Source: Escherichia coli (GTDB lineage Bacteria; Pseudomonadota; Gammaproteobacteria; Enterobacterales; Enterobacteriaceae). From it: a stretch of 64,000 nucleotides of DNA. Position 1 is the first letter of the stretch. Each line of letters opens with the position of its first letter. The stretch is taken from the NCBI RefSeq assembly GCF_030013205.1, contig NZ_CP122648.1; one strand, written 5' to 3'. The translations under genes and the position numbers were made by a program. Below the pieces are notes generated by a model. That model ran no database searches. It was not told the DNA's origin and was given only the letters and a program-made list of their open reading frames with translations. Below, in pieces: positions 10,120 through 10,700 of this stretch.

Positions 10120-10202
10120 TTAAAACACCTTAGCTGTTAGCCATGGCTAACAAAATAGATGTTAACAAAAACATAGTCAATACGATTTAGCATTAGCTAA
10201 CT
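10120..10202. promoter_or_regulatory. divergent dicC/dicA promoter-operator region
   Basis: Palindrome TTAGCCATGGCTAA at 10137-10150 and related TTAGCTAA element overlapping the dicA start. Confidence 0.5.
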
Positions 10203-10610
10203 ATGGATACAAAAAATTTAACCATCGGCGAACGCATTAGGTATCGTCGGAAAAACCTCAAACACACCCAAAGGTCTCTTGCTAAAGCCCTGAAAATCTC
10301 CCATGTGTCTGTATCACAATGGGAACGGGATGATAGTGAACCTACAGGGAAGAACCTTTTTGCCCTCAGCAAAGTATTGCAATGCTCACCAACATGGATT
10401 CTATTTGGCGATGAAGACAAGCAACCAACACCACCTGTTGAGAAGCCGGTTGCCTTAGCCCCCAAAGAACTAGAGCTCCTTGAGCTGTTTAATGCACTGC
10501 CAGAATCAGAACAGGATACCCAGCTCGCCGAAATGCGAGCTCGAGTAAAAAATTTCAATAAACTCTTTGAAGAATTACTAAAAGCCCGTCAGCGGACAAA
10601 TAAAAGATAA
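10203..10610 (+). CDS. dicA: DicA, HTH-XRE repressor of the dicB operon
   Basis: 135-aa ORF nearly identical to K-12 DicA as I recall it (MDTKNLTIGERIRYRRKNLKHTQRSLAKAL...). Confidence 0.9.
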   Translation: MDTKNLTIGERIRYRRKNLKHTQRSLAKALKISHVSVSQWERDDSEPTGKNLFALSKVLQCSPTWILFGDEDKQPTPPVEKPVALAPKELELLELFNALPESEQDTQLAEMRARVKNFNKLFEELLKARQRTNKR

Positions 10611-10639
10611 CATCATCAATGAGTTATCTTTTATTATAT

Positions 10640-10700
10640 CAATTATGTTAGCCATAACATACAAAATCACTTGACCAATATGTTAGTCATGGCTAATCTT
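10640..10700. promoter_or_regulatory. operator-like palindromes upstream of the ydfA-dicB operon
   Basis: ATGTTAGCCATAACAT (10646-10661) and TGTTAGTCATGGCTAA (10681-10696), related to the dicA/dicC operator palindrome. Confidence 0.4.

Follow-up and report, generated by a model that had tools for sequence, protein, structure and literature searches.

Candidate repressor operators on both sides of dicA in a Qin/DicA-type immunity region of an Stx2e prophage

The closest described system is the immunity locus of the Qin prophage of Escherichia coli K-12 (Bejar et al. 1986/1988, Yun et al. 2012, Ragunathan et al. 2023). DicA binds K-12 Oc in vivo, and through this operator dicC is repressed and dicA is activated (PMC3441716). 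These data come from an in vivo assay and from EMSA with crude extracts; the dependence of binding on DicA was established by deletion of dicA and complementation, and an A-to-C substitution in Oc abolishes it (PMC3441716). Yun et al. determined the position of the dicC start by 5'RACE and report that Oc overlaps the -10 box; their His-tagged DicA was insoluble (PMC3441716). Binding of DicA in vivo was seen neither to Om alone nor to Oa alone (PMC3441716). On the other side of the repressor gene, a dicBp-lacZ fusion is derepressed 22-fold by deletion of dicA, the DicA/dicB switch is bistable, and Rem is an antirepressor that relieves DicA repression (PMC10448788). Operator triplets at dicCp and dicBp are credited to Bejar et al. 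1988 (PMC10448788). The DicA site for dicB is a low-evidence entry in the Reg-Seq study, its location not being given in RegulonDB (PMC7567609). DicC gives ChIP-seq peaks on either side of dicA (PMC11430063); the main text of the ChIP-seq compendium does not mention DicA.

The layout also resembles immC of phage P22, in that the N-terminal domain of DicA is similar to C2 and DicC to P22_Cro, the cI-type and cro-type genes are divergent, and the PL-like promoter lies downstream of the repressor gene. The sites are likewise 18-bp dyads in which the outer positions are conserved and the centre varies; the P22 repressor contacts positions 2-7 and 12-17 of its operator and leaves positions 8-11 uncontacted (PMC4267663). 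In contrast, the half-site GTTAGC differs from that of P22, a single strong site and two weak ones are found at the PR-like promoter, and on the PL side the -35 box separates two sites that are spaced by 35 bp. DicA, of 135 residues, has no S24 autocleavage domain and is thus not RecA-cleavable, unlike P22 C2. With the lambda cI/cro system (OR1-3, OL1-3), the dic locus shares operators common to both regulators at two lytic promoters flanking the repressor gene, autoactivation and bistability (PMC10448788, PMC3441716). However, the operators have no sequence relationship, octamer looping and three equally spaced functional sites are lambda features not evidenced for the dic locus, and induction here involves the Rem antirepressor rather than RecA-mediated cleavage.

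We analysed a 64-kb stretch of E. coli DNA (hereafter the window) that carries an Stx2e prophage inserted beside ompW, with exo, xis, int, Q and stx2e genes. Its immunity region has the gene order of K-12 Qin and 96.4% DNA identity with it over 1.2 kb; the 681-bp region occurs in roughly 3,900 E. coli genomes. We estimate at about 90% the probability that this locus is the immunity (lysis-lysogeny) switch of a Qin/DicA-type lambdoid prophage, with the repressor acting on the palindromes beside dicA. The features are as follows.

4453-4713, minus strand: Rem homologue, 71% identity to K-12 Rem (E 2e-41)
9889-10119, minus strand: dicC, 76 residues, Cro analogue (Pfam P22_Cro, E 1.7e-11)
10135-10152: operator Oc, TGTTAGCCATGGCTAACA, a palindrome that is perfect over 18 bp; the published 20-mer corresponds to 10134-10153
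10152-10180, minus strand: dicC promoter dicCp (PR analogue); -35 TTGACT 10175-10180, 17-nt spacer, -10 TATTTT 10152-10157
10159-10174: Om-like element ATGTTAACAAAAACAT, filling the dicCp spacer
10185-10202: Oa-like operator ATTTAGCATTAGCTAACT, 50 bp away from Oc and directly adjoining the dicA ATG
10203-10610, plus strand: dicA, 135 residues, cI/C2 analogue (Pfam HTH_3, E 1e-15)
10599-10635, plus strand: AT-rich inverted repeat I4 of 13 bp, 100% complementary, spanning the dicA stop codon
10646-10663: candidate distal dicBp operator TGTTAGCCATAACATACA, lying 5' of the -35 box, with a perfect left arm and 4/6 matches in the right one
10671-10699, plus strand: putative dicB promoter dicBp (PL analogue); -35 TTGACC 10671-10676, 17-nt spacer, -10 TAATCT 10694-10699
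10681-10698: candidate proximal dicBp operator TGTTAGTCATGGCTAATC, lying over the spacer and the initial bases of the -10 box
10706-10776, plus strand: conserved 5' leader of the early-left (ydfA-dicB) operon, where homology with hetero-immune relatives resumes
10777-12596, plus strand: operon predicted to be repressed, continuing into DUF1482, exonuclease, xis and int
10777-10932, plus strand: ydfA (Pfam DUF1391)
10934-11062, plus strand: ydfB (annotation of an identical record)
11074-11634, plus strand: 186-residue ORF, standing where K-12 has ydfC
12160-12210, plus strand: DicF-like RNA, a diverged copy
12399-12596, plus strand: dicB homologue (Pfam DicB, E 1e-30)

The window and K-12 Qin do not differ in Om, Oa, the proximal dicBp operator or either -35 box, and ydfA, ydfB, dicB and the Rem homologue are all present. 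In contrast, the Oc centre is CCATGG rather than TCATAA, which makes Oc a perfect 18-bp palindrome here; the -10 box of dicCp is TATTTT instead of TATCTT, and the centre of the distal dicBp site is CCATAA instead of CTATAG. In addition, the 186-residue ORF replaces ydfC, and DicF has diverged in its 5' part (32.5 bits, against a Rfam gathering score of 48). The element is also much more complete than K-12 Qin and occupies a different site, at ompW.

The genes had been named correctly in the original prediction, as DicA is 98% and DicC 100% identical to the K-12 proteins, and dicC is so annotated in a 100%-identical database record. The two genes are divergent and separated by 83 bp. Phmmer searches of PDB sequences matched residues 7-71 of DicA to the N-terminal domain of P22 C2 (1adr, 2r1j and 3jxb, E 8e-20 to 2e-19). 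Pfam searches returned only helix-turn-helix families for DicA, with no match to Peptidase_S24; with its 135 residues, DicA thus joins a C2-like DNA-binding domain to a C-terminal half of another kind and is not a full member of the P22 C2 type.

The three palindromic sequences on which the prediction rested were all located exactly, at the positions claimed. The first, TTAGCCATGGCTAA (10137-10150), lies within the perfect palindrome of Oc, flanked by the starts of dicC (10119, minus strand) and dicA (10203). Its variants were said to recur upstream of ydfA-dicB, and indeed ATGTTAGCCATAACAT (10645-10660) and TGTTAGTCATGGCTAA (10681-10696) both fall in the interval from the dicA stop (10610) to the ydfA start (10777). 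They belong to a family of related 18-bp sites, TGTTAG-YYATRR-CTAACA, whose four to five members are found only in the two intergenic regions beside dicA. Exact TTAG-N6-CTAA occurs three times in the 64 kb, each time at the dicA flanks (0.75 expected). When the whole window was scanned with the half-site TGTTAGC, requiring at least 11 of 14 arm positions, four of the five matches fell in the 250 nt of intergenic DNA around dicA (0.009 expected), a clustering whose Poisson P of ~3e-10 is post hoc because one of the matches had defined the motif. In all likelihood these palindromes are the already-described repressor sites of a lambda-like prophage switch; the finding is therefore correct but ordinary.

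Compared with K-12 Oc (TTGTTAGTCATAACTAACAA), Oc of the window has substitutions at the central positions 10141, 10145 and 10146; over 10134-10153, these three and one flanking change are the only differences, and the arms are intact. The arms are also unchanged across 45 distinct relatives, including the critical adenine at 10149, the equivalent of the K-12 position whose A-to-C change abolishes DicA binding (PMC3441716). The dicC promoter, the only sigma-70-like match of our consensus scan, overlaps Oc with its -10 box. The Om-like element is invariant in the 45 relatives, and only its left half-site (TGTTAA) fits the operator consensus. The Oa-like operator, a member of the family overlooked in the earlier description, matches TTAG-N6-CTAA and scores 11/14 in the half-site scan, and equivalents are found at +49/+50 in 8 of 12 representative loci, spanning three of the five specificity classes described below. 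Given that neither Om nor Oa of K-12 bound DicA when taken singly, not every palindrome of this region need be a DicA site.

At dicBp, the existence of a distal site held, but not the ATGTTA/TAACAT symmetry proposed for it, the better register being TGTTAGCCATAACATACA at 10646-10663. In relatives, TGTTAG is invariant, the next two bases (YY) vary, AT is invariant and the following RR vary, so that the dyad centres on 10654/10655. TGTTAG-YYATRR-CATACA thus accounts for the columns that vary and those that do not, and we rejected the former register, whose symmetry is also missing from a sister lineage (ATGTTAGTCATGGCAAACA). The distal site thereby shares the pattern of Oc, with invariant arms and a variable centre, and 7 of 12 representative loci have an equivalent site +511 to +518 from Oc. 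The proximal site is base-for-base the same as in K-12 and shares 15 of 18 positions with Oc, among them the whole left arm and the right-arm bases CTAA; it has equivalents at +545 to +589 from Oc in all 12 loci. The -35 box of dicBp is invariant in the 45 relatives, and hetero-immune relatives have, in the same register, TTGCCT or TTGACG, a 17-nt spacer and TAAATT. With a -10 box that matches the consensus at only 3/6 positions, dicBp falls below the threshold of the consensus scan, and hence its placement should be read as putative.

A third dicBp operator candidate just 3' of the -10 box, TGTTTACATCAACA (10700-10713), was rejected; it matches at only 7 of 12 arm positions, and its CATCAA..ACACCG elements also occur in hetero-immune relatives and are therefore not immunity-specific. 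Nothing convincing as a further operator was found between the dicA stop and 10645. The inverted repeat at 10599-10635 is possibly a dicA terminator, as its sequence suggests; the consensus scan did not call it as one. The leader at 10706-10776 was considered as a structured RNA and rejected, since it folds no better than shuffled sequence (z = 0.45), and it has no match in Rfam.

The operator arms are invariant in the 45 distinct sequences while neighbouring bases vary, and they are kept in relatives with 63-79% repressor identity even though the flanking DNA has diverged; in more distant relatives positions 8-11 are free to vary and GTTAGC/GCTAAC is retained. Beyond these, five repressor classes with distinct recognition helices each have their own half-site, namely TGTTAGC, AATTAGC, TGTTAGA, CCTTAGA and TATTGAG. 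The class-specific palindromes are found at offsets 0, ~+50, ~+511-518 and ~+545-589, i.e. on both sides of the repressor gene, with two stray matches in ~35 kb. That palindromes differ with the recognition helix at the same positions argues for repressor-specific operators. The mosaic boundary with the hetero-immune relatives lies just after the -10 box of dicBp. Sequence, position, conservation and covariation of the sites were all directly observed for the window. The proposed repressor control of the dicB/dicF operon is thus supported by the equivalence with K-12 Oc, the position of the proximal site within dicBp and the covariation of palindromes and helices; as Oc binding, dicBp derepression and the DicC peaks have been published for K-12, it was also already known.

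We propose that the switch would work as follows. DicA, a short P22-C2-like helix-turn-helix repressor, would bind as a dimer to 18-bp operators, recognizing the arms (T)GTTAG and CTAAC(A) and making few or no base contacts with the centre. The leftward dicC promoter has Oc over its -10 box and start region; in the putative rightward early-left promoter, the spacer and -10 box are taken up by the proximal dicBp site. Because the operators overlie both lytic promoters, bound repressor would exclude RNA polymerase from both, which should silence ydfA, ydfB, the DicF-like RNA, dicB, exo, xis and int. We infer that DicA occupies both candidate dicBp sites. The distal dicBp site, Om and Oa would be weaker auxiliary sites, filled cooperatively or preferentially by DicC. 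DicC, as the Cro analogue, would share the operators and shut off dicA. Since DicA has no cleavable C-terminal domain, induction would occur through the Rem antirepressor or by a spontaneous flip of the bistable switch.

The alternative that survives best, which we nevertheless find improbable, is that the palindromes are mainly DicC sites, DicA acting only at Oc and repressing dicBp indirectly, for example by blocking DicC synthesis or by looping from Oc. The strongest DicC ChIP-seq signal is at the dic locus, with two inferred sites on either side of dicA, and the DicC motif TT(A/C/T)G..C(G/A/T)AA fits the palindromes of the window (PMC11430063), the Oa-like operator being compatible with it in the form TTNG..CNAA. 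The behaviour of Om and Oa towards DicA (PMC3441716) and the unmapped DicA site of dicB (PMC7567609) point the same way. However, the close match of the proximal dicBp site to Oc speaks against this reading. Moreover, in the lambda/P22 paradigm both proteins share operators, so that binding of DicC does not exclude DicA. It is less probable still that a host factor, YjdC or H-NS/Cnu, is the chief recognizer of these sites. YjdC occupies the dic locus in ChIP-qPCR and represses the dic genes when overproduced (PMC9283627), and a dicA promoter fragment gave a DicA-independent shifted band, and CnuK9E/H-NS antagonizes DicA (PMC3441716). Nevertheless, a host factor cannot account for palindromes that, inside a single species, track the allele of the prophage's own repressor, and binding to Oc requires DicA, as the deletion and complementation experiments established (PMC3441716). 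Finally, that the repeats arose by chance or reflect structure (hairpins, terminators or restriction-site-like sequences) and have no protein-binding role, as the abundance of short AT-rich palindromes in intergenic DNA and the terminator-like repeat at 10599-10635 might suggest, is barely credible and in effect already refuted by conservation and covariation, given the invariant arms amid varying neighbours, sites that covary with repressor class at fixed positions, a clustering P of ~1e-7 to 1e-10 and the direct genetic evidence for K-12 Oc (PMC3441716).

Taking the palindromes as repressor operators, the analysis re-identifies those of a switch studied since 1986, and its value lies in a coordinate-level map of this allele. 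As the switch resides in an apparently complete Stx2e prophage, induction through DicA and Rem without RecA cleavage would be a control layer upstream of toxin-phage activation. The five recognition helices paired with five half-sites form a natural specificity series, and the natural central-base variants of one operator could serve in work on indirect readout and on how the set point of a bistable switch is tuned.

The one surprise is how fast the centres of the operators change between strains. Natural centres include CCATGG, TCATGA, TCATAA, CCATAA and TTATGA. Positions 7, 8, 11 and 12 of the three 18-mers are ~15 times more diverse than fourfold-degenerate sites of dicA (within-lineage diversity of 0.29-0.33 versus 0.02). 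By Fitch parsimony, 64 steps are needed on these 12 centre sites versus 59 steps on 136 third-codon sites, and the same 12 sites hold 38% of the differences between near-identical loci. All the centre changes are transitions, with no transversions among the 45 distinct sequences; C and T alternate repeatedly in the left half and G and A in the right, and the arms (positions 1-6 and 13-18) never change. Such diversity exceeds uniform neutral drift and thus points to recurrent selection or to a site-specific mutational process. We raise only tentatively the idea that the inner operator bases are a fast-evolving tuning dial of the switch. If either selection or localized mutagenesis is at work, operator tuning would have left an unusually clear signature at the population level.

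Complexes of the P22 and 434 type are weaker when the centre contains G.C pairs. Recurrent selection could act on operator affinity via indirect readout, and the pressure could come from repressor titration among co-resident DicA-immune prophages or from shifts between cryptic and inducible lifestyles. Alternatively, a site-specific mutational process may operate at repressor-bound quasi-palindromes. The symmetric coupling of positions 7/12 and 8/11 that would signal quasi-palindrome template switching was absent; asymmetric centres, CCATAA and TCATAA for instance, occur often. The sister immunity class, represented by 22 distinct sequences, shows an excess of only 2- to 4-fold at the centres and an invariant proximal site; centre hypervariability is strong only in the DicA class. 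The G+C content of the Oc centre correlates with that of the distal site (rho 0.52) and not with that of the proximal site, and associations of the centres with DicA residues 43 or 2 largely follow lineage.

Only 15 loci came out of a metagenome scan, and many of these were K-12-like. Among the non-identical loci, the closest has eight intergenic differences from the window and none in dicA; four of the eight are in operator centres, two are bases flanking Oc and two lie elsewhere.

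The region around dicA has the organization of a DicA/DicC immunity switch of the Qin type, which has a P22/lambda-like design and is already described in the literature. Its parts are arranged as follows:

9889-10119, minus strand: dicC open reading frame
83-bp spacer between dicC and dicA
10203-10610, plus strand: dicA open reading frame
166-bp spacer between dicA and ydfA
10777-10932, plus strand: ydfA
12399-12596: open reading frame of the DicB family (Pfam, E 1e-30)

DicC has 100% and DicA 98% identity with their K-12 counterparts, and the 1.2 kb surrounding dicA is 96.4% identical to the K-12 Qin prophage. 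Pfam assigned DicC to P22_Cro and YdfA to DUF1391. Only HTH_3 was found in DicA, the S24 peptidase domain being absent, and DicA residues 7-71 matched the N-terminal domain of the P22 C2 repressor (PDB; E 8e-20). A 13-bp AT-rich inverted repeat (10599-10635) straddles the dicA stop codon. In the diverged relatives L076-L082, the repressor stop codon leads directly into everted operator arms (AGCTAACA..TGTTAGCT) and then a T-run, a terminator-like structure made of operator half-sites.

The original prediction of related palindromic operators on both sides of dicA was confirmed as to the sites, and the three strings that it quoted were located as exact strings; the register of one site was corrected, and one site was added. 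The elements are:

10137-10150: TTAGCCATGGCTAA, core of a perfect 18-bp palindrome, TGTTAGCCATGGCTAACA (10135-10152), corresponding to K-12 Oc
10159-10174: ATGTTAACAAAAACAT, element with a half-site only (Om)
10185-10202: ATTTAGCATTAGCTAACT, the added, Oa-like relative, abutting the dicA start codon
10645-10660: ATGTTAGCCATAACAT, string quoted for the distal dicBp site
10681-10696: TGTTAGTCATGGCTAA, string quoted for the proximal dicBp site

The distal site had been read as ATGTTA/TAACAT. We place it at 10646-10663 instead, because in this register it has the same pattern of invariant arms and polymorphic centre columns as the other sites. All three exact TTAG-N6-CTAA matches in the 64-kb window sit within the two spacers flanking dicA, with 0.75 expected window-wide. 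A dyad scan of the window (TGTTAGC-N4-GCTAACA, at least 11 of 14 arm positions) returned five sites, four of them in the 250 nt on either side of dicA. In Markov-1 simulations, 2.4 such sites arose per 64 kb, or 0.009 per 250 nt (Poisson P ~3e-10, a post hoc value for a motif defined by one of the sites).

The sole promoter called by a consensus scan is that of dicC, dicCp, on the minus strand (TTGACT at 10175-10180, 17-nt spacer, TATTTT at 10152-10157). Oc adjoins this -10, overlapping it, and spans the start region, and Om occupies the spacer. A PL-like promoter, dicBp, can be read at TTGACC (10671-10676), a 17-nt spacer and TAATCT (10694-10699); it has a weak -10, and the consensus scan did not call it. 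In hetero-immune relatives (same flanks, different repressor), the same register holds TTGCCT or TTGACG and, after a spacer of 17 nt, TAAATT. The proximal operator (10681-10698) fills the dicBp spacer and the first three -10 bases, and the distal operator lies upstream of the -35, 35 bp away centre to centre. The 5' leader of the ydfA-dicB operon (10706-10776, plus strand), which includes AACACCGCACGGTGTT, is near-invariant and common to hetero-immune relatives; its predicted fold is not better than that of shuffled sequence.

The K-12 Oc is TTGTTAGTCATAACTAACAA, from which window positions 10134-10153 differ at three central positions (10141, 10145 and 10146) and one flanking base, whereas there is no difference in Om, Oa or the dicC -35 box. 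The proximal dicBp site is identical to that of K-12, and the distal site has two central differences. An in vivo operator assay showed binding of DicA to the K-12 Oc (Yun et al., PMC3441716), and a single right-arm A-to-C change, equivalent to window position 10149, abolishes binding. In the same study the dicC promoter was mapped by 5'RACE, its -10 being overlapped by Oc; from Oc, DicA acts as a repressor of dicC and an activator of dicA, and Om and Oa alone do not bind DicA. Deletion of dicA derepresses dicBp-lacZ 22-fold, and Rem was identified as an antirepressor (Ragunathan et al., PMC10448788); that paper, citing Bejar et al. 1988, counts three operator sequences in each of the two intergenic regions. 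The Reg-Seq paper describes the DicA site for dicB as low-evidence, its location being unknown in RegulonDB (PMC7567609). Oc binding, dicBp derepression and identity with K-12 support the repressor-operator idea, which the literature already contained. With a probability of about 0.9, DicA dimers would occlude dicCp from Oc and dicBp from the proximal site, with DicC sharing the operators and weaker auxiliary sites assisting.

At some E. coli loci, heterologous repressor and cro genes stand between the same flanks, with a ydaT-like gene to the left and ydfA/ydfB to the right. We compared five of these hetero-immune loci, 80 IMG/VR loci (DicA-family alignment) and 80 more with the repressor type of locus L004. 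Those IMG/VR relatives whose repressor is 63-79% identical have GTTAGC..GCTAAC at the same places despite diverged flanking DNA. Five recognition-helix classes were found, each with its own palindrome.

Recognition helices and palindrome half-sites of the five classes
..KISHVSVSQWERDD (DicA class): TGTTAGC
..LSDVSVSQWERDD: AATTAGC
..VAHVTISQWERDE (L004 type): TGTTAGA
..VAHVTISQWERDE (L083 type): CCTTAGA
..VSGSSISLWESDH: TATTGAG

When 12 representative loci were scanned, each with the half-site of its own Oc-like site, sites fell at fixed offsets (0, +49/50, +511 to +518 and +545 to +589), with two stray matches in ~35 kb. Homology with hetero-immune loci restarts directly past the dicBp -10, which indicates that the operators are part of the exchangeable immunity module. 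The palindromes on both sides of the repressor gene covary with the recognition helix of the repressor, as repressor-specific operators predict; neither chance palindromes nor host-factor sites predict such covariation.

We aligned 45 distinct DicA-class sequences (window 10100-10780). Oc and both dicBp sites show no variation in the arms TGTTAG and CTAAC or in the central AT, and four inner positions per site are polymorphic (C/T in the left half, G/A in the right half), giving the consensus TGTTAG-YYATRR-CTAAC. The polymorphic positions are:

10141, 10142, 10145, 10146: Oc
10652, 10653, 10656, 10657: distal site
10687, 10688, 10691, 10692: proximal site

The hypervariable columns were seen in L002, L003, L008-L062 and L172. 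By far, these 12 sites are more variable than every neutral benchmark in the same alignment. Fitch counts on a neighbour-joining tree of the remaining columns gave 5.3 steps per site (64 steps), versus 0.43 at dicA third-codon positions and 0.55 at the remaining intergenic sites. Nucleotide diversity within lineages is 0.29-0.33 versus 0.018-0.022 at fourfold-degenerate dicA sites (~15-fold), and transitions relate to transversions as 12 : 0 versus 16 : 10 at the fourfold-degenerate sites. In pairs of sequences with 1-5 differences over 681 positions, the 12 centre sites account for 38% of the differences (1.8% expected). The window differs from L009 solely at 10687 and from L011 only at 10134, 10141 and 10146; L172, the nearest non-identical relative in an independent metagenome scan, shows eight differences, all intergenic, four of them in operator centres and none in dicA. 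The four-gamete condition is violated at positions 4 bp apart, which favours recurrent change over recombination. No coupling of symmetry-related centre positions was found, and in the sister L004 immunity class the excess of centre diversity is only 2-4-fold.

By homology, the inner positions map at or beside the uncontacted centre of the P22 repressor site, where G.C pairs weaken repressor binding via indirect readout (PMC4267663). The window Oc centre, CCATGG, is therefore predicted to be a weaker variant than K-12 TCATAA. Operator centres may be a rapidly evolving element in which affinity is tuned repeatedly. Their hypervariability may instead reflect a localised mutational process, or have another cause.

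The window has 100% identity with the swine isolate E. coli K_EC180, where the prophage adjoins ompW and stx2e lies just left of the window start. This Stx2e prophage encodes Q, rusA, hokD, a YdaT-family gene, dicC, dicA, ydfA, ydfB, dicB, an exonuclease, xis and int. The sequenced phage PhiR42_1 has the same immunity region (96.5% identity), so the module is also found in a deposited phage genome. Neighbouring features are:

4453-4713, minus strand: homologue (71% identity) of Rem, which in K-12 lifts DicA repression as an antirepressor
4961-5116, minus strand: hokD coding sequence
5188-6261: IS481-family transposase gene, between hokD and the sok/hok-leader match
6220-6387, minus strand: sok/hok-leader match (Rfam)
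6590-7549, minus strand: SIR2-family gene, in the slot of relBE in K-12 Qin
12160-12210, plus strand: DicF-like RNA upstream of the dicB homologue (32.5 bits, below the Rfam gathering threshold of 48)

The Rem homologue suggests that the Stx2e prophage could be induced via an antirepressor and not by cleavage of the repressor. An IS insertion seems to have split the hok locus. The SIR2-family gene, with weak matches to the defence models Aga_SIR2 and PDC-S21 (E 1e-5 to 1e-6), may be a prophage-borne anti-phage defence gene. Compared with K-12 DicF, the DicF-like RNA keeps the terminator hairpin and has an altered 5' part, and its target range may therefore differ. A 186-aa open reading frame within 11074-12160, in place of K-12 ydfC, had no match in Pfam or PADLOC. 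The rightward operon also contains, upstream of the DicF-like RNA, a 189-aa open reading frame on the opposite strand (11591-12160), for which the annotation gives a hypothetical gene of 408 nt. In the chromosomal part, two matches to the STnc490 Hfq-binding RNA (37359-37482 and 60412-60535, minus strand), both of 146.4 bits and 23 kb apart, are probably copies of one repeated element.
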